Of a DNA stretch of 64,000 nucleotides, positions 23,578 to 57,748 are shown in pieces; position 1 is the first letter of the stretch, and every line of letters starts with the position of its first letter. The position numbers were made by a program, and so were the translations under genes. The stretch is from Patescibacteria group bacterium (GTDB lineage Bacteria > Patescibacteriota > Patescibacteriia > UBA1558 > GWA2-36-10): contig JBAYIR010000004.1 of NCBI GenBank assembly GCA_041665505.1, positions 6,797 through 70,796 on the forward strand, read 5' to 3'. The notes beneath the pieces were generated by a model that did not search any database, was not told the origin of the DNA, and saw only the letters and a list, made by a program, of their open reading frames with translations.

Positions 23578-23607
23578 TTATATTTTTTTAATAGCAAATT
23601 AAATAAA

Positions 23608-23631
23608 CCGTCCTCAAGTGGCGGTTTTTTT
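23608..23631 (+). terminator. rho-independent terminator of rmuC (ccgtc ctcaagt ggcgg + T7)
   Basis: 5-bp stem (one G-U) followed by ttttttt. Confidence 0.4.
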
Positions 23632-23677
23632 GGGACGGCGGGATTGCCTGGTGGCAATCCCGCCGTCATGCTCTGTG

Positions 23678-24061
23678 CTACGCGTGGCAGAATTGAGCTG
23701 CCACCAGCCGACCCAGGCCATCACTGGCCCAGTTGATGCTGTGGGTTTCCCATTGCCATTGGAAGCCCCTCCGCATTACCAGATCATACATCATTGGGCT
23801 GGCTACTACCGCCACCGGATTGATGTTTAGTGGCCATTCATCACCTTCGCTATCTCCAGCAAATATGAGAGTAGCAATGCCGAGCAGTGTGCCCTTCGGC
23901 AAGTACTGGTTGACGCCACGCCAGGTGGCTCTTCCGTCATCCATTTGGAAGATAGCGATATCAAAGGGATAAATATTGTCCCTTGCGGTGTAAGTAGAAG
24001 TGATGTCTTCTTCCATTTGGAACCAGGGCAGCTGATTGATCTGGATATTCTGGGTGTTCAT
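23678..24061 (-). CDS. hypothetical protein encoded in GC-rich island A (start at second Met, preceded by GGAGGT SD)
   Basis: 127-aa ORF MNTQNIQINQLPWF...; GGAGG 5 nt upstream of the ATG; GC content far above the backbone; no family recognised. Confidence 0.4.
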   Translation of the reverse strand: MNTQNIQINQLPWFQMEEDITSTYTARDNIYPFDIAIFQMDDGRATWRGVNQYLPKGTLLGIATLIFAGDSEGDEWPLNINPVAVVASPMMYDLVMRRGFQWQWETHSINWASDGLGRLVAAQFCHA

Positions 24062-24355
24062 GACAACCTCCATCAGTTATCGCACTGATTGGGCGTGACA
24101 GGGTTGAACTGTCAGGGGGTGGATGCTGCTCGTAGCAAATTCAATGAGCAGCACATTAGTTTCCATTAGTTGAAAAATACTGTGCTACCCATTGATATTT
24201 AATGTGAAAGAGCTAGATTAATATAGAATTATAGCATATTTTGTTTATTTTGTCAATGTTTAGTAGTATATAGTAGCTAGTATAATATTAAAAAAGTATT
24301 GACTTTTTCAAGTTTAGCGGTTATAATGTAGCCGCTTTTTGTTTATTATAAATTT

Positions 24356-43351: not shown

Positions 43352-43419
43352 GTTCATTTGAAATAAAATATTTTTAGAAGGAATTGTCCGTCACTGTTCA
43401 CTCGCACAGGGAGGTAGTC

Positions 43420-43707
43420 ATGTCTGAAGCCGTCGCTTACATCAAAATCATTGATACTCCTTCGGGAGAGGAAAACCTGCTCGCGCGTCATGAGTTTCAA
43501 GACTTGGTCTTACCGACCATCACCCCCAACGGTCAGCAAGTTGGCTACTACGTCGTCTATCTTTTGGATGCTCTGCCCATCATCAACGCGGAGCGCCCAC
43601 TCTTGGCCGAATGGCTCAAAGAGAAGTATCCAGAAGAGCAAGATCGCTCTAGTATCCGTCTCATTTTTGAGGCAACAGTCTGCCAAGAGACGATGGCCTT
43701 GGTATAG
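43420..43707 (+). CDS. hypothetical protein encoded in GC-rich island C (AGGGAGG SD 6 nt upstream)
   Basis: 95-aa ORF MSEAVAYIKIIDTPSGEENLL...; GC content far above the backbone; no family recognised. Confidence 0.4.
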   Translation: MSEAVAYIKIIDTPSGEENLLARHEFQDLVLPTITPNGQQVGYYVVYLLDALPIINAERPLLAEWLKEKYPEEQDRSSIRLIFEATVCQETMALV

Positions 43708-43735
43708 CAGATAGCAACGCTCGGCTGATGACAGT

Positions 43736-43766
43736 GGCGAAGCTGGGTTCAAACCCCAGCTTCGCC
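43736..43766 (+). terminator. 12-bp perfect hairpin (ggcgaagctggg ttcaaac cccagcttcgcc) after the island C gene
   Basis: Perfect inverted repeat; loop resembles a tRNA T-loop; weak downstream U-tract. Confidence 0.45.
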
Positions 43767-52783: not shown

Positions 52784-52922
52784 AATTAGCTATTTTTATG
52801 CAAAAACCCTCAAATTTGAGGGTTTTTTAGTTTACCTCTTGCCAAAATATTTTTTTTGTGCTATAGTAGTTTCGTTATAAACAGCCGTAAGCGCTGTTTT
52901 AAAAAACTTTTATTTTGAGAAT

Positions 52923-53105
52923 ATGAACAAAATAGTAAATTATTTTAAAGGGGCCAAAGAAGAACTATCTAAAGTTATCTGGCCATCAAGACAAACCACT
53001 ATTAATCATTCTTTAATGGTGATTGGTGTTTCTGTAGCAGTAGCTATTTTTTTAGGGATAGTTGATTTGGGGCTTAGTAAAGTTGTAGAAAACTTGATTA
53101 AATAA
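52923..53105 (+). CDS. secE: preprotein translocase subunit SecE
   Basis: 60-aa protein KGAKEELSKVIWPSRQTTINHSLMVIGVSVAVAIFLG; upstream of nusG. Confidence 0.7.
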   Translation: MNKIVNYFKGAKEELSKVIWPSRQTTINHSLMVIGVSVAVAIFLGIVDLGLSKVVENLIK

Positions 53106-53122: not shown

Positions 53123-53668
53123 ATGCCAAAACAAACCGCACAACAGGGTCGAAGGTGGTATGTATTACATACTTATTCTGGTTATGAAGAAAATGTTTCT
53201 CGTAATTTAAAGCAACGTATTGAATCCATGGATATGGAGGATAAAATTTTTGATGTCCTGATACCAACTGAAACCAAAATTAAGATAAAAAATGGCAAAA
53301 GAAAAACCGTCAAAGAAAAGATTTTTCCTGGCTATGTCTTGGTCTCTATGATAGTAACTGATGCTTCTTGGTATGTAGTGAGAAATACACCAAATGTCAC
53401 TGGCTTTGTGGGTAGTGGTACTACACCGACACCTGTTTCCGAATCAGAAATAAAAGCTCTGATGCAAAGAATGGGTGCTGAAGAACCAGAATTTAAAGTA
53501 GATATAGAAATTGGTGAAGTAGTCAAAATTACTGATGGACCATTTAAAGATTATGAAGGTAAGATTTCCGAAGTTGATGAAGCTCGTGGCAAAGCCAAAG
53601 TCTTGGTTTCTATGTTTGGTCGCGAAACCCCAATTGAGTTAGATTTTTTACAAATTAAAAAAGTATAA
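53123..53668 (+). CDS. nusG: transcription antitermination factor NusG
   Basis: RWYVLHTYSGYEENV...KIFPGYVLV (NGN) and KOW EVVKITDGPFKDYEGKI. Confidence 0.85.
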   Translation: MPKQTAQQGRRWYVLHTYSGYEENVSRNLKQRIESMDMEDKIFDVLIPTETKIKIKNGKRKTVKEKIFPGYVLVSMIVTDASWYVVRNTPNVTGFVGSGTTPTPVSESEIKALMQRMGAEEPEFKVDIEIGEVVKITDGPFKDYEGKISEVDEARGKAKVLVSMFGRETPIELDFLQIKKV

Positions 53669-53679
53669 ATAATTTTGTA

Positions 53680-53738
53680 GGGAGCTCTGGCTAGTCGGCC
53701 GAGCGTTTGAACCTCGTAATAATAAATAATATGGCAAA
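53680..53738 (+). promoter_or_regulatory. 59-bp leader element, copy 1 (identical copy before rplA), includes the rplK start codon
   Basis: gggagctctggctagtcggccgagcgtttgaacctcgtaataataaataatatggcaaa is repeated exactly at 54198..54256. Confidence 0.5.
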
Positions 53739-54156
53739 GAAAATCAAACAAATGGTTAAGTTGCAACTCCAAGCTGGTAAAGCTACTCCAGCTCCTCCAG
53801 TAGGAACTGCGCTTGGACCACATGGCTTAGACATTCAATCTTTTTGTGTACAATTTAATGAAGCCACCAAAGATCGTATGGGTGAAGTAGTACCTATAGA
53901 TTTGGCAATTTATGAAGACAGAACTTTTTCTTTTGTCTTAAAAACTGCCCCAGCTTCTGATATGATTAAGAAAAAACTTAATCTAAAAAAAGGTTCTGGT
54001 AGTCCACTGCAACAAAAAATTGCTACTCTAACTAAAGCACAATTGACTGAAATTGCTTTGGCTAAAATGCCGGATTTAAATACTAAGGATGTTGAAAAAG
54101 CCAAACTTATAATTGCTGGTACGGCTCGTCAAATGGGAGTAAAGATAGAAGAATAA
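53731..54156 (+). CDS. rplK: 50S ribosomal protein L11
   Basis: MAKKIKQMVKLQLQAGKATPAPPVGTALGPHGL. Confidence 0.85.
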   Translation: MAKKIKQMVKLQLQAGKATPAPPVGTALGPHGLDIQSFCVQFNEATKDRMGEVVPIDLAIYEDRTFSFVLKTAPASDMIKKKLNLKKGSGSPLQQKIATLTKAQLTEIALAKMPDLNTKDVEKAKLIIAGTARQMGVKIEE

Positions 54157-54197
54157 TAATTTTGTCCCTCCTTCGCCAAGGCTATGGAGGACAAGAG

Positions 54198-54256
54198 GGA
54201 GCTCTGGCTAGTCGGCCGAGCGTTTGAACCTCGTAATAATAAATAATATGGCAAAA
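54198..54256 (+). promoter_or_regulatory. 59-bp leader element, copy 2, includes the rplA start codon
   Basis: Exact repeat of 53680..53738. Confidence 0.5.
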
Positions 54257-54934
54257 ATAAGTAAGAGATTAAAAGAGGCTAAAGCCAAGATTGAAAGCAA
54301 AAAGGTTTATAGTATCGAAGAGGCTATCAAGTTGGTCAAGGAAACTAGCGCAGTAAAATTTGATGCTTCTGTAGAAGTGCACGCCAAATTGGGTATTGAT
54401 CCCAAAAAAGGTGAGCAAATTGTCAGAGCTTCTGTGGTCTTGCCAAATGGTACTGGTAAGACAGTCAGAGTAGCTGCTTTTGTACCAGAGAATCGGGTCA
54501 AAGAAGCTAAAGACGCTGGGGCTGATTTGGTAGGTGGCGAAGAATTGATTGCTGAAATCAAGAAAACATCTAAAACAGATTTTGATATTGCGGTTACTGT
54601 GCCAGAAATGATGCCTAAGTTAGCAGCTGTAGCCAAAGTATTAGGTCAAAAAGGTCTAATGCCTAACCCCAAGACTGGTACAATTAGTCCAGATTTAGCT
54701 AAAATGGTTGGTGAACTTAAAAAAGGTAAAGTATCTTATAAAAATGATATTACCGCTAATATTCATTTGAGTATTGGTAAAGTATCTTTTGATGATGCTA
54801 AATTGATTGAGAATTTTAAAACATTTTTAGACTCTCTAAAAAAATCTAAACCACCAACTGTCAAAGCCACTTATATTAGATCCTTATTTGTTTCTTCATC
54901 TATGGGGCCTAGTATCAAGGTAAGTATAAATTAA
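54248..54934 (+). CDS. rplA: 50S ribosomal protein L1
   Basis: MAKISKRLKEAKAKIESKKVYSIEEAIKLVKE... L1 family. Confidence 0.85.
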   Translation: MAKISKRLKEAKAKIESKKVYSIEEAIKLVKETSAVKFDASVEVHAKLGIDPKKGEQIVRASVVLPNGTGKTVRVAAFVPENRVKEAKDAGADLVGGEELIAEIKKTSKTDFDIAVTVPEMMPKLAAVAKVLGQKGLMPNPKTGTISPDLAKMVGELKKGKVSYKNDITANIHLSIGKVSFDDAKLIENFKTFLDSLKKSKPPTVKATYIRSLFVSSSMGPSIKVSIN

Positions 54935-55227
54935 TTACTACTAGTAAATAGAAAATCATCCGAGAGGGTGGTTTTTTGTTTAAATAAAAACCCTAGTCAC
55001 AAGAACTAGGGTGGTCTTACGACCTATCCCTTTTTATCTAGTAGCTAGATAAAAGAGGATTTTGAGGAGTTCCCACAGAGCTTTGATAAACAAAGCAGTA
55101 ATGATTTGTTTCAGTAGATCTTGCCGATTCATCACAAAACCTCCTTTGAAAGAGCAGGTCTTTAAAGGTAGACCTAAAACCCCTTCCCAAATGGGAAGGG
55201 GTTGGGCTTATATTTTTAAAACAAATA

Positions 55228-55548
55228 TCAACGCAAACCTTTCCCGCGGGAAGGTCTGTTATGATGATTTAGTTTATTTAGCATCAATTTATAGCCACTC
55301 ATACCATTATTAAGCCATTTAGAAATACGAGCCACAGTAGTAGAACTTAGGCCAGTTTTTTGGACTATTTGAGTATAGGGAATATTTTTATCTAGCATTT
55401 GAGCAGCTTGCCAACGATTAGAAAATTCTGTGATTTCTGACTCTGTCAAAAGGTCACGCAAAAATAGTTTGGCTTCTTTTTGATTGTCTAAAGCTAATAT
55501 AGCATCAAATAGCTTAATTATTTTTTTATCGTATTTCATATTAATCAC
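55228..55548 (-). CDS. TrpR-like (YerC/YecD family) DNA-binding protein
   Basis: LTESEITEFSNRWQAAQMLDKNIPYTQIVQKTGLSSTTVARISKWL helix-turn-helix of the Trp-repressor-like family. Confidence 0.55.
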   Translation of the reverse strand: MINMKYDKKIIKLFDAILALDNQKEAKLFLRDLLTESEITEFSNRWQAAQMLDKNIPYTQIVQKTGLSSTTVARISKWLNNGMSGYKLMLNKLNHHNRPSRGKGLR

Positions 55549-55608
55549 TTTAGTTAAGTAAAGTATAGCATATAAAAAAAATATGTCAATATTTTTAAAA
55601 AAAGGAAA

Positions 55609-55633
55609 CCCGCCGCGTCAGACGCGGCGGGTT
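55609..55633 (-). terminator. rho-independent terminator of the island D two-gene unit (minus strand)
   Basis: acccgccgcg tcaga cgcggcgggt 10-bp stem followed on the minus strand by ttcctttttttaaaaa. Confidence 0.6.
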
Positions 55634-55658
55634 CAAACAGCGTGTCGTGGTCGATAGT

Positions 55659-55883
55659 TTAGCGACCACGCAAGCCAAGACGAGCTCTCTGTCGGAGCAG
55701 CTGCAGGTGAGCAAGGCGGGGATTGTTGGGCCGACTGACTGGTGGGCAGTCGCGACAGCGGAAAGGGTGAAGTACTGAGACGCTTTTGGTCTTAGGCTCT
55801 CCTTTCAAGACTGTCAAGCGACCCAAGCTGTCTTGACGGAATGTCCGCCTACAGCCCCCGATACACAGGAGTAGTGTGGGCAT
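55659..55883 (-). CDS. small Cys-containing, Arg-rich hypothetical protein (island D, gene 2; AGGAGG SD overlaps the upstream stop)
   Basis: 74 aa with CIGGC...CRDC; AGGAGG 5 nt before the ATG; GC-rich. Confidence 0.3.
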   Translation of the reverse strand: MPTLLLCIGGCRRTFRQDSLGRLTVLKGEPKTKSVSVLHPFRCRDCPPVSRPNNPRLAHLQLLRQRARLGLRGR

Positions 55884-55892
55884 GAAGACCTC

Positions 55893-56099
55893 CTAGGAAG
55901 TGAATCGTTGACGAGCCGAGGGAACACCGGCTAGCGTTTTGAGTTGTCTCCTGATGTCACAGTCGTTCAGACAGCCACTGGTGCGGCCGATAACTGTGGC
56001 GATAGCACTTAGTGGTGTAGAGGGATTAGCAATAGCGCCGATACATTGTTGGCAGTTTACCCGGGGGATTTTGGTCTGGGCGACCTTTATAGACTTCAT
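55893..56099 (-). CDS. small Cys-containing hypothetical protein (island D, gene 1; start at the Met preceded by GAAAGG SD)
   Basis: 68 aa with CQQC...GCLNDC; the ORF track starts earlier at 56195, but a sigma70-like promoter falls inside that extension. Confidence 0.3.
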   Translation of the reverse strand: MKSIKVAQTKIPRVNCQQCIGAIANPSTPLSAIATVIGRTSGCLNDCDIRRQLKTLAGVPSARQRFTS

Positions 56100-56150
56100 A
56101 TTAAGCCTTTCGGTTTTGGGTATTTTGTCGTCTCTTAGGTGCTTGCTTAT

Positions 56151-56179
56151 ATGGTAAAATTTACTGATAATTTTGTCAA
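56151..56179 (-). promoter_or_regulatory. candidate sigma70-type promoter for the island D unit (TTGACA-17 nt-TACCAT on the minus strand)
   Basis: Minus-strand ttgacaaaattatcagtaaattttaccat about 50 nt upstream of the SD/ATG at 56099. Confidence 0.3.
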
Positions 56180-56257
56180 CATTTATATTTGCCATATTTT
56201 AAGGCTTATGTTAAATTAGCTGTATTAAATTAATTTATTATTTATGGAGTTAAATAT

Positions 56258-57748
56258 ATGGAATTAGTATTTAAAATAAAAGAAAATCAAGAAGCAGAGG
56301 CTTTATTTGTGCCCGCCTTTCAAGATGACAAAGCTATTATAGCTCTACTTAGGTCTTTCAATTTTCCAAATAGTCAAGATATTTTAATTCGTCTTAGTAA
56401 GGAAAATTTTAAAGGTCTTAAAGGTCAATTGTTTGCTGTCCATAGTGCTAAACAAATTGTAGTTTTTATTGGGGCTGGACCAAGTAAGAAATTATCAGCT
56501 GAAGATTTGAGGTTACTAGCTGGTTATATAGTGTCTCATTTGAAAAAATACAAGACCACTAACATTGGTCTAGTAGCTAAACATTGGCTCAGAGGAACTA
56601 GTGAGGTCAGTCTTTTGGCCCAATCATTGGCTGAGGGGCTATATTTGGCTAGTTATAATTTTGATAAATATAAAACACAGGATCAAGAAAATATAAAAGT
56701 AAATATTGAAAAATTATTTGTTGATATTGATAATAAATTTAAAAATAAATTTAAAGAGGCTTGGCAACTTGGTTTGTTGATGGCTCAAGGCACTATCAAA
56801 GCCAGAGATTTGGTCAACGAACCAGCTGGACACATGACCCCTAGTTTTTTAGCCGATGAAGCAATGGCTATTGCTAAGGTCAATAAAAATATAATAGTCA
56901 AAGTTTTTGATAAAGAAAAAATTGAAGCTATGGGTATGGGGGCTTTTTTGGGCATTGCCCAAGGCTCCAATCAAGCTCCCAAGTTTATACATTTAATCTA
57001 TAAACCAGCCGGCAAAATCAAAGACAAAATAGCTTTAGTTGGTAAAGGTATTACTTTTGATAGTGGTGGTTTAAATGTTAAACCTTGGGAGGGAATGTTG
57101 CAGATGAAGATAGATATGGGTGGAGCGGCTACAGTCTTTGGAGTTTTTTCAGTTATAGCTAAAATCCAGCCCAAAGTAGAAGTACATGGTATTATTGCGG
57201 CTTGTGAAAATATGTCTTCAGGTTCAGCTATTAAGCCAGGTGATATCTTGACTAATATGCAAGGTAAGACTATTGAGATTGCCAATACTGATGCTGAAGG
57301 CCGGGTTACTTTAGCAGATTCTTTGGCTTATGCTCAAAAGCAAGGCATTAAAAAAATGGTGGATATTGCTACACTAACAGGCTCTATTATGGTGGCTCTG
57401 GGTTCACAATATGCTGGATTATTTAGTCTAGACTCAAAAATGTCTCAAGGTATTCTCAAATCAGCTCAAAAAACAGGGGAGAATATGTGGCAAATGCCTA
57501 TGGCTTTGGAGTATAAAGAGGCCAATGAAAGTAAAATAGCAGATATTAAAAATATTGGTAGTTCTAGATTGGGTGGTTCTATTATGGCAGCTTGGTTTCT
57601 TCAGGATTTTATCAGTGACGGCGCATCTTTGGTCCATATTGATATTGCTGGCCCAGCTTACGCTGAAAAAGAGATGAATTCATATATTCCAGTTGGTGGA
57701 GTAGGTTTTGGAGTGCGCACTATGCTTGATTGGCTCAAAAGTATTTAG
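56258..57748 (+). CDS. pepA: leucyl aminopeptidase (M17)
   Basis: VGKGITFDSGGLNVKP and NTDAEGRVTLAD M17 signatures. Confidence 0.85.
   Translation: MELVFKIKENQEAEALFVPAFQDDKAIIALLRSFNFPNSQDILIRLSKENFKGLKGQLFAVHSAKQIVVFIGAGPSKKLSAEDLRLLAGYIVSHLKKYKTTNIGLVAKHWLRGTSEVSLLAQSLAEGLYLASYNFDKYKTQDQENIKVNIEKLFVDIDNKFKNKFKEAWQLGLLMAQGTIKARDLVNEPAGHMTPSFLADEAMAIAKVNKNIIVKVFDKEKIEAMGMGAFLGIAQGSNQAPKFIHLIYKPAGKIKDKIALVGKGITFDSGGLNVKPWEGMLQMKIDMGGAATVFGVFSVIAKIQPKVEVHGIIAACENMSSGSAIKPGDILTNMQGKTIEIANTDAEGRVTLADSLAYAQKQGIKKMVDIATLTGSIMVALGSQYAGLFSLDSKMSQGILKSAQKTGENMWQMPMALEYKEANESKIADIKNIGSSRLGGSIMAAWFLQDFISDGASLVHIDIAGPAYAEKEMNSYIPVGGVGFGVRTMLDWLKSI

Follow-up and report, generated by a model that had tools for sequence, protein, structure and literature searches.

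Introduction

Ribosomal protein L1 is known to control its own synthesis by binding an mRNA site that mimics its site on the 23S rRNA. The mRNA site is bound more weakly than the rRNA, and translation is repressed when the rRNA is limiting (PMC10931766; PMC3616713). Three placements of the L1 site have been reported by Fu et al. 2013; the site was placed before rplA in Cyanobacteria, Actinobacteria and Chloroflexi and before both genes in more than 40% of the Firmicutes, and binding was validated in G. kaustophilus (PMC3616713). Dual L1 sites are also attributed to T. thermophilus and T. maritima by Mikhaylina et al. 2021, as that work is cited in PMC10931766. The literature that we searched contained nothing on L1 leaders of the Candidate Phyla Radiation (CPR) or on concerted evolution of ribosomal-protein leaders.

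In the present study, we analysed a stretch of 64 kb from the phylum Patescibacteria (the whole stretch is called the window below), in which the same element stands in front of both rplK (L11) and rplA (L1). The arrangement of two L1 sites is already known elsewhere; the window adds a phylum outside those surveys and no new mechanism. Here the structure, the distribution and the probable history of the two copies are described, and the element is compared with the L1 sites of E. coli and of other bacteria.

Materials and Methods

We collected 160 loci around rplA from Patescibacteria genomes and metagenomes (819 kb); single loci are given below by their numbers (L001 and so on). An alignment of 86 distinct CPR rplA-leader sites was prepared, to which neither the window nor any genome with a site before rplK contributed, and the covariance model R1 built from this alignment is free of the window and of the dual-site genomes. 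The criteria for an L1-interacting autoregulatory mRNA leader were taken after Fu et al. 2013, in which the irregular stem is of 6-12 bp.

Results

The repeat and the genes that it precedes

On the forward strand of the window, the genes are ordered secE (52923-53105), nusG (53123-53668), rplK and rplA, and the intergenic gap between rplK and rplA is 91 nt. The L1 protein of the window matches solved bacterial L1 proteins (E 2e-69). The features of this locus outside the repeat are as follows.

52839 to 52867, + strand: sigma-70-like promoter 5' of secE (TTGCCA-17-TATAGT with TG), found by promoter scan
53731 to 54156, + strand: rplK (L11) coding sequence, Pfam Ribosomal_L11_N and Ribosomal_L11
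54248 to 54934, + strand: rplA (L1) coding sequence, encoding the presumed repressor, Pfam Ribosomal_L1 (E 7e-56)
54956 to 54977, + strand: terminator-like hairpin and U6 run 3' of rplA, found by direct reading and missed by the scan

In front of rplK and rplA we found a perfect direct repeat of 60 nt with the sequence AGGGAGCTCTGGCTAGTCGGCCGAGCGTTTGAACCTCGTAATAATAAATAATATGGCAAA. The copies start 517 nt apart, and each of them stops 8 nt inside its gene, the terminal bases being ATG GCA AA.

53679 to 53738, + strand: copy 1 of the direct repeat (60 nt, no difference from copy 2), made up of the operator, a spacer of A and U only, and the initial 8 nt of rplK
54196 to 54255, + strand: copy 2 of the direct repeat (60 nt, no difference from copy 1), made up of the operator, a spacer of A and U only, and the initial 8 nt of rplA

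With up to 3 mismatches tolerated, the 37-nt core of the repeat has exactly 2 matches in the 64-kb window, and it had none in 100 dinucleotide-preserving shuffles. The base immediately 5' of the repeat is unlike between the copies (U53678 versus G54195). Only the 5' 38 nt are GC-rich (61-63% GC, in a genome of 35% GC), and the 15 nt between operator and AUG are made of A and T exclusively. An earlier note, made on this DNA, had described an identical GC-rich element of 59 bp duplicated before L11 and L1. The duplication stands, but the length is 60 nt, with one more base on the 5' side, and the term GC-rich holds for the first 38 nt and not for the pure A/T spacer. The distance from operator to start codon is 15 nt at both genes, and this interval comprises the two initiation regions.

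53716 to 53730, + strand: rplK 15-nt spacer and translation initiation region, GUAAUAAUAAAUAAU, without a Shine-Dalgarno motif (sequence)
54233 to 54247, + strand: rplA 15-nt spacer and translation initiation region, identical to that of rplK (sequence)

A motif of Shine-Dalgarno type stands before only 4 of the 44 long open reading frames in the window; therefore, its absence before rplK and rplA is normal for this genome.

Fold of the two copies

The same fold was obtained for both copies. It consists of P1 (AGG/CCU), a 5' GA bulge, the P2 hairpin and a 7-nt 3' internal loop GUUUGAA, after which CC follows. P2 is GCUC(U)GGCU-AGUC-GGCCGAGC, of 8 bp, and P1 has 3-4 bp. The helices proposed earlier (GGGAG...CUC and CGAG..CUCG) were thus partly right, the conserved pairing being AGG/CCU for P1 and GCUC(U)GGCU/GGCCGAGC for P2. 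The predicted elements, with the scores of model R1, are listed here.

53678 to 53715, + strand: predicted L1 operator 1 (rplK); R1 19.4 bits, E 0.035, second best in 64 kb; fold
53679-53681 with 53712-53714, + strand: P1 of operator 1 (fold)
53682-53683, + strand: GA bulge of operator 1 (fold)
53684-53692 with 53697-53704, + strand: P2 of operator 1, U53688 bulged, loop AGUC (fold)
53705-53711, + strand: 3' internal loop GUUUGAA of operator 1 (fold)
54195 to 54232, + strand: predicted L1 operator 2 (rplA), of the same architecture as operator 1; R1 32.0 bits, E 5.4e-5, best in 64 kb; fold
54162 to 54194, + strand: extra hairpin with an invariant CCUCC/GGAGG stem core, lying between the rplK stop and operator 2 and abutting P1; fold, z -2 for the 106-nt region

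In copy 2, P1 has its full 4 bp (GAGG/CCUC). The outermost P1 pair of operator 1 is a U53678/C53715 mismatch, and the fold bulges U53678 and continues with G53677-C53715. The isolated element does not exceed shuffled sequence in stability (z -0.14 to -0.18); hence, the case for the structure rests on covariation and not on energy. There is no U-tract 3' of the structure, so that it is not an intrinsic terminator. The AGUC loop of P2, which is conserved in many relatives, was also considered as a mimic of the AGUC in E. coli H78, and this idea was dropped because the AGUC of H78 sits in a stem.

The extra hairpin is also present in L003/L089 and L006/L082, and it is absent in L001, L002, L004, L081 and L085. 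It has no U-tract and is no classical terminator. Its 5' arm begins 5 nt past the rplK stop, and a terminating ribosome would probably melt it.

Transcription of the locus

The promoter scan gave no consensus promoter next to either operator. Between rplK and rplA there is neither a consensus promoter nor a U-tract terminator, and the non-terminator hairpin described above is present there. The promoter before secE is the likely start of a putative secE-nusG-rplK-rplA transcript. Since this is the sole nearby promoter and the terminator-like hairpin follows rplA, both operators would be intercistronic elements, probably inside one such transcript, and this fits control at the level of translation.

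Two other candidates at the repeat were rejected. A promoter within it (TTGAAC-14 nt-TAATAT) has the wrong spacing, and the scan was negative beside either copy. A small upstream open reading frame of about 20 codons, starting at 54184 and running through operator 2, is unconserved, with a frame shift in L003 and no ATG in L006.

Comparison with known L1 sites

Rfam 15 gave no family at either copy, at the gathering threshold or at E up to 10, and none at gathering level in the 64 kb. The search with the Rfam leader models, which the earlier note had recommended as a check, was therefore uninformative. We therefore compared the element with the L1 sites of E. coli and with the related loci, of which the closest are metagenome-assembled genomes of Komeilibacteria with 81-84% L1 identity. 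In nearly all of the related loci, a motif of the form GAGGGA...ACCUC or GUGGGA...ACCAC lies right upstream of rplA. The invariant positions in the 86-site alignment are G1, G3-G5 and A6, together with the A and the CC before the last P1 pairs. In these 86 leaders, 98.6% of the cells in the P1 and P2 structure are paired, changes on both sides of P1 and P2 amount to 196 cells against 53 +/- 7 in shuffles, and sliding the 3' partners by 1-3 columns brings the pairing down to 43-53%; these figures are inflated and partly circular for the pairs that were demanded by the pattern used to pre-select the training sites, namely P1 and a minimum of 3 pairs in P2.

When the window was searched with R1 (64 kb, both strands, filters off), 54195-54232 came first and 53678-53715 second, and the next best match had 9.4 bits. 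The score of operator 1 is 12.6 bits below that of operator 2, since its outer P1 pair has U53678 at a position where G is invariant in the training set. When E. coli sequence was searched (16 kb with rrnB and the L11 operon), the same model placed the L1 operator of the rplK leader first (18.7 bits) and the L1 stalk of the 23S rRNA second (11.3 bits). This rplK-leader site is the genetically defined L1 operator. In the 160 related loci, R1 gave 137 matches at E up to 1, all of them on the coding strand; they immediately precede rplA or, in the dual-site genomes and L008, rplK.

Read from NC_000913, the operator before E. coli rplK is GGGAGCCUCUCAGAGGCGUUAUUACC, 16 nt before the AUG (the leader sequence is GGGGAGCCUCUCAGAGGCGUUAUUACCC, also 16 nt before the AUG), and its counterpart in the window element is GGGAGCUC...GAGCGUUUGAACC, 15 nt before the AUG. 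The L1 stalk of the E. coli 23S rRNA has the sequence GGUGGGAGGCUU...CUUGAAAUACCACC. The window element and the E. coli operator have in common the GGGAG, the hairpin, GCGUUnnnACC and the spacing to the AUG. With regard to the criteria for L1 leaders, the element lies in the untranslated region just upstream of rplK and rplA, has an irregular stem with an internal bulge and asymmetric loop, and mimics both the 23S rRNA and the operator of E. coli. These findings indicate that both copies are very probably functional L1 operators, as far as sequence and predicted fold can tell.

The suggestion that an L1-site mimic precedes each cistron is supported by the ranking of both copies as the top two in the window by a model of CPR rplA leaders. 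It had been added in the earlier note that a lack of similarity to an L1 site, together with absence of the repeat from relatives, would speak for an incidental duplication; we found the similarity, and the repeat is present in related genomes.

Distribution among relatives

An L1 site was found upstream of rplA in about 85% of the 160 related CPR loci, and sites before rplK, with or without one before rplA, were found only in a small Komeilibacteria-like group. Three layouts occur among the close relatives.

Site before rplK and rplA: the window, L001, L002, L003 (=L089), L004 (=L083/L084), L006 (=L082), L081 and L085; rplK-rplA gap 57-98 nt
Site before rplK only: L008; rplK-rplA gap 4 nt (E. 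coli: 3 nt)
Site before rplA only: the nearest outgroups L005, L086, L007 and others; rplK-rplA gap 53-66 nt

In the outgroups, the spacer between nusG and rplK is 6-25 nt, and for this reason the rplK site has the appearance of a copy of the rplA leader that was inserted there. In a neighbour-joining tree of L11 and L1 (369 aa), the dual-site genomes form one group with L008 adjacent to it. This tree suggests a single origin of the rplK site, and we go no further than that because its bootstrap is 27-39%.

In many other CPR lineages (loci L015-L080 and L091-L160), rplK is not adjacent to rplA. The Magasanikbacteria loci have no rplK in the upstream flank, of which at most 2.5-3 kb were examined. 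Elsewhere the two genes are 0.4-2 kb apart with unrelated genes, such as a 291-aa dehydrogenase-like open reading frame (L035) or a 140-aa membrane-like one (L052); examples of such split loci are L035 1568-3001, L052 2469-3001 and L064. In the CPR genomes with a split rplK, rplA has its own consensus promoter, and the L1 site comes immediately after it.

Probable concerted evolution of the copies

In the leader tree, the rplK copy groups with the rplA copy of its own genome in 5 of the 8 genomes, with bootstraps for the same-genome pairs of 87 (window), 100 (L085), 78 (L006), 65 (L002) and 43 (L001). The two copies within L004 and within L081 are strongly diverged. Their rplK copies retain the invariant positions, and P2 is fully paired in them with another sequence, which argues that the rplK copy is itself under selection.

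The identity of rplK and rplA leaders averages 87% within a genome and 75% across genomes, and orthologous leaders are 74% (rplK copies) and 77% (rplA copies) identical. Among the 40,320 permutations possible for the 8 distinct dual-site genomes, the true same-genome pairing is the single best. The genome-specific variants common to both copies lie in the distal P2 stem, the P2 loop and the AU spacer, and the same parts vary freely between genomes; hence, copying between the sites explains the pattern better than selection does. Taken over the 8 distinct dual-site genomes, the data indicate that the copies are kept alike by gene conversion or, equally, by repeated re-duplication. A recent duplication, which had been offered earlier as the alternative to L1 control, gains support from the grouping of the paralogues by genome in the relatives, and it is compatible with the L1-site reading.

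Other features of the window

Directly 3' of rplA (54935-55230), rplJ and rplL are absent. The terminator-like hairpin is followed there by several inverted repeats and then by a convergent gene of the Trp-repressor family (55228-55548, - strand; Pfam Trp_repressor, E 2e-20). L001 appears to be without this gene, since it has about 350 nt from rplA to the sequence matching the window just upstream of the open reading frame at 56258. ARAGORN and Rfam (gathering threshold) gave no tRNA, tmRNA or other known RNA family in the 64 kb.

On the - strand, 55600-56195 has 55-60% GC in this genome of 35% GC, with a sigma-70-like promoter (56179-56151) and a strong terminator (55634-55606), and it folds better than shuffled sequence (z -3.8). 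It contains open reading frames of 100 and 74 aa, both with CxxC pairs, and AGGAGG stands before the second. The closest relative, L001, is without this stretch. No Rfam or Pfam match was obtained for it, and blastn against the PLSDB plasmids and the fetched loci gave nothing beyond the short terminator hairpin. The GC-rich part (55600-56150) was first taken as a non-coding RNA, and the later checks made a small foreign gene pair at least as likely; 55600-56195 could be a structured RNA or a small foreign cassette of two genes, the gene pair being at least as likely.

The GC content is also raised (52-57%) in two other islets within long intergenic gaps, at 23600-24100 (- strand) and 43380-43760 (+ strand), which have no sequence similarity to each other. 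They contain plausible open reading frames of about 127-131 aa (23678-24073, - strand) and about 95 aa (43420-43707, + strand), each with a strong Shine-Dalgarno motif ahead, unlike the host genes, which are mostly without such motifs. By these sequence features, both islets look like horizontally acquired small genes.

Discussion

In the present study, we found that rplK and rplA of a Komeilibacteria-like genome of the Patescibacteria are each preceded by the same predicted L1 operator, joined to the same start region. The explanation that we favour is as follows. The 38-nt GC-rich part would fold to imitate the GGUGGGAG...AAAUACCACC core of the L1 stalk in the 23S rRNA. When more L1 is made than there is free 23S rRNA, it would occupy both operators, and bound L1 would block the loading of the 30S subunit separately at the AUGs of rplK and rplA, 15 nt downstream. 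Because the cistrons are 91 nt apart, translational coupling as in E. coli should be impossible and repression could not be passed across the gap, so that each cistron would need an operator of its own; L008, with one operator plus coupling, may represent the alternative solution. The identity of the copies would arise from repeated copying of the operator and initiation cassette between the two positions by gene conversion, and as a side effect both cistrons would have equal initiation strength and equal sensitivity to L1. In short, we infer L1 binding, repression, co-transcription and conversion for two L1 operators fused to AU-rich starts without Shine-Dalgarno motifs, which would repress separately and be kept identical, and we consider this explanation as a whole likely.

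We also propose a history of the cassette, on which we are evenly divided. In a Komeilibacteria lineage, a copy of the operator and initiation cassette of the rplA leader may have been placed before rplK and then repeatedly homogenised, and the relatives may keep all three states as a snapshot of operator movement; concerted evolution would then be seen for the first time in an autoregulatory leader of a ribosomal protein. If true, it would give a direct snapshot of how the L1 operator moves between rplA and rplK across phyla, by duplication and then by loss with translational coupling.

Other explanations have to be weighed against these. The rplA copy might be the only working operator, with the rplK copy a recent incidental duplicate without a regulatory role. 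The 100% identity of the copies fits a very young duplicate, the outer P1 pair of copy 1 is weakened and its model score is lower, and the rplA position is ancestral, since the outgroups have the rplA site only. However, a site at the rplK position occurs in 8 distinct dual-site genomes and is the sole site in L008, in L081 and L004 the diverged rplK copies have kept the invariant positions and still form a fully paired P2 through other sequences, and P1 of the E. coli operator is also just 3 bp; we therefore give little credence to an idle rplK copy. We also find it very doubtful that the element is a structured RNA serving some other function (in RNA processing or stability, in attenuation of transcription, or as a site for L11 or another protein) and only superficially resembles an L1 site. 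The two best matches of the leader-trained model in 16 kb of E. coli are the L1 operator and the L1 stalk of the 23S rRNA, the site is restricted to positions upstream of rplA and rplK in 819 kb of related DNA, and the missing U-tract speaks against an intrinsic terminator, although Rfam has no match, the L1-site identity is predicted from sequence, and an extra conserved hairpin adjoins copy 2.

The identity of the copies, in turn, might come from purifying selection for one optimal operator and initiation sequence and not from conversion or re-duplication. Some shared sequence is indeed expected, as both sites presumably bind the same protein and both genes begin with MAK. Against this, the identity extends to the distal P2 stem, the loop and the AU spacer, which vary freely, the variant common to the two copies differs from genome to genome (as in L085 and L006), and orthologous copies are 74-77% identical versus 87% for same-genome paralogues, which makes selection as the sole cause rather improbable. 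An assembly artefact or a dispersed mobile repeat is practically negligible as an explanation. The window probably comes from a metagenome assembly, in which repeats can mis-join, but independent assemblies from different studies have the same two-site layout with their own variants, and the repeat has two copies only in the window and none elsewhere in the loci of the relatives.

Two L1 operators kept alike by copying, which we prefer to the above alternatives, would extend L1 autoregulation by rRNA mimicry to the CPR, including lineages in which rplA is away from rplK. The presence of the site in about 85% of the loci supports the view that it is among the most widespread feedback elements of ribosomal proteins. 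These L1 sites would go unnoticed in Rfam-based annotation, a gap that model R1 could fill. In addition, the Komeilibacteria-like group is a compact natural series for the change of operator position and for coupling versus separate control, and, in a genome largely without Shine-Dalgarno motifs, one may ask how initiation would be blocked by a repressor bound 15 nt upstream. The novelty is modest and lies in the duplication of operator, initiation region and first codons as one homogenised unit, and in the occurrence of the rplA-only, dual and rplK-only states among close relatives.

Among the known systems, the operator of the E. coli L11 operon resembles the window element in GGGAG-hairpin-GCGUU(A/U)(U/G)(U/A)ACC, a P1 of 3-4 bp, the GA bulge and the 7-nt 3' loop, and its distance to the AUG is 16 nt, compared with 15 nt in the window. 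E. coli has one operator, translational coupling over a 3-nt gap between rplK and rplA, and a Shine-Dalgarno motif between operator and AUG, whereas the window has two operators, a 91-nt gap and no Shine-Dalgarno motif, and rplJL does not follow rplA. The L1 stalk of the 23S rRNA (H76-H78 region), the primary L1 site, shares GUGGGA...A(U)ACCAC with the window; the stalk compared is that of E. coli, and it differs from the window element by a longer 3' segment and a longer hairpin (43 nt between the conserved ends). In Actinobacteria, Cyanobacteria, Chloroflexi and the archaeal L1 operon (Methanococcus vannielii), the site lies directly before rplA, as in most of the CPR relatives, and unlike in the window there is no site before rplK. 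The Firmicutes (Geobacillus kaustophilus), T. thermophilus and T. maritima have one site per gene as the window does, the pair being presumably co-transcribed. The window differs from them in its phylum (Patescibacteria/CPR), in the full identity (100%) of its two sites, spacers and first codons, and in the concerted evolution of these among relatives, the Firmicute and Thermus pairs having been compared by layout alone.
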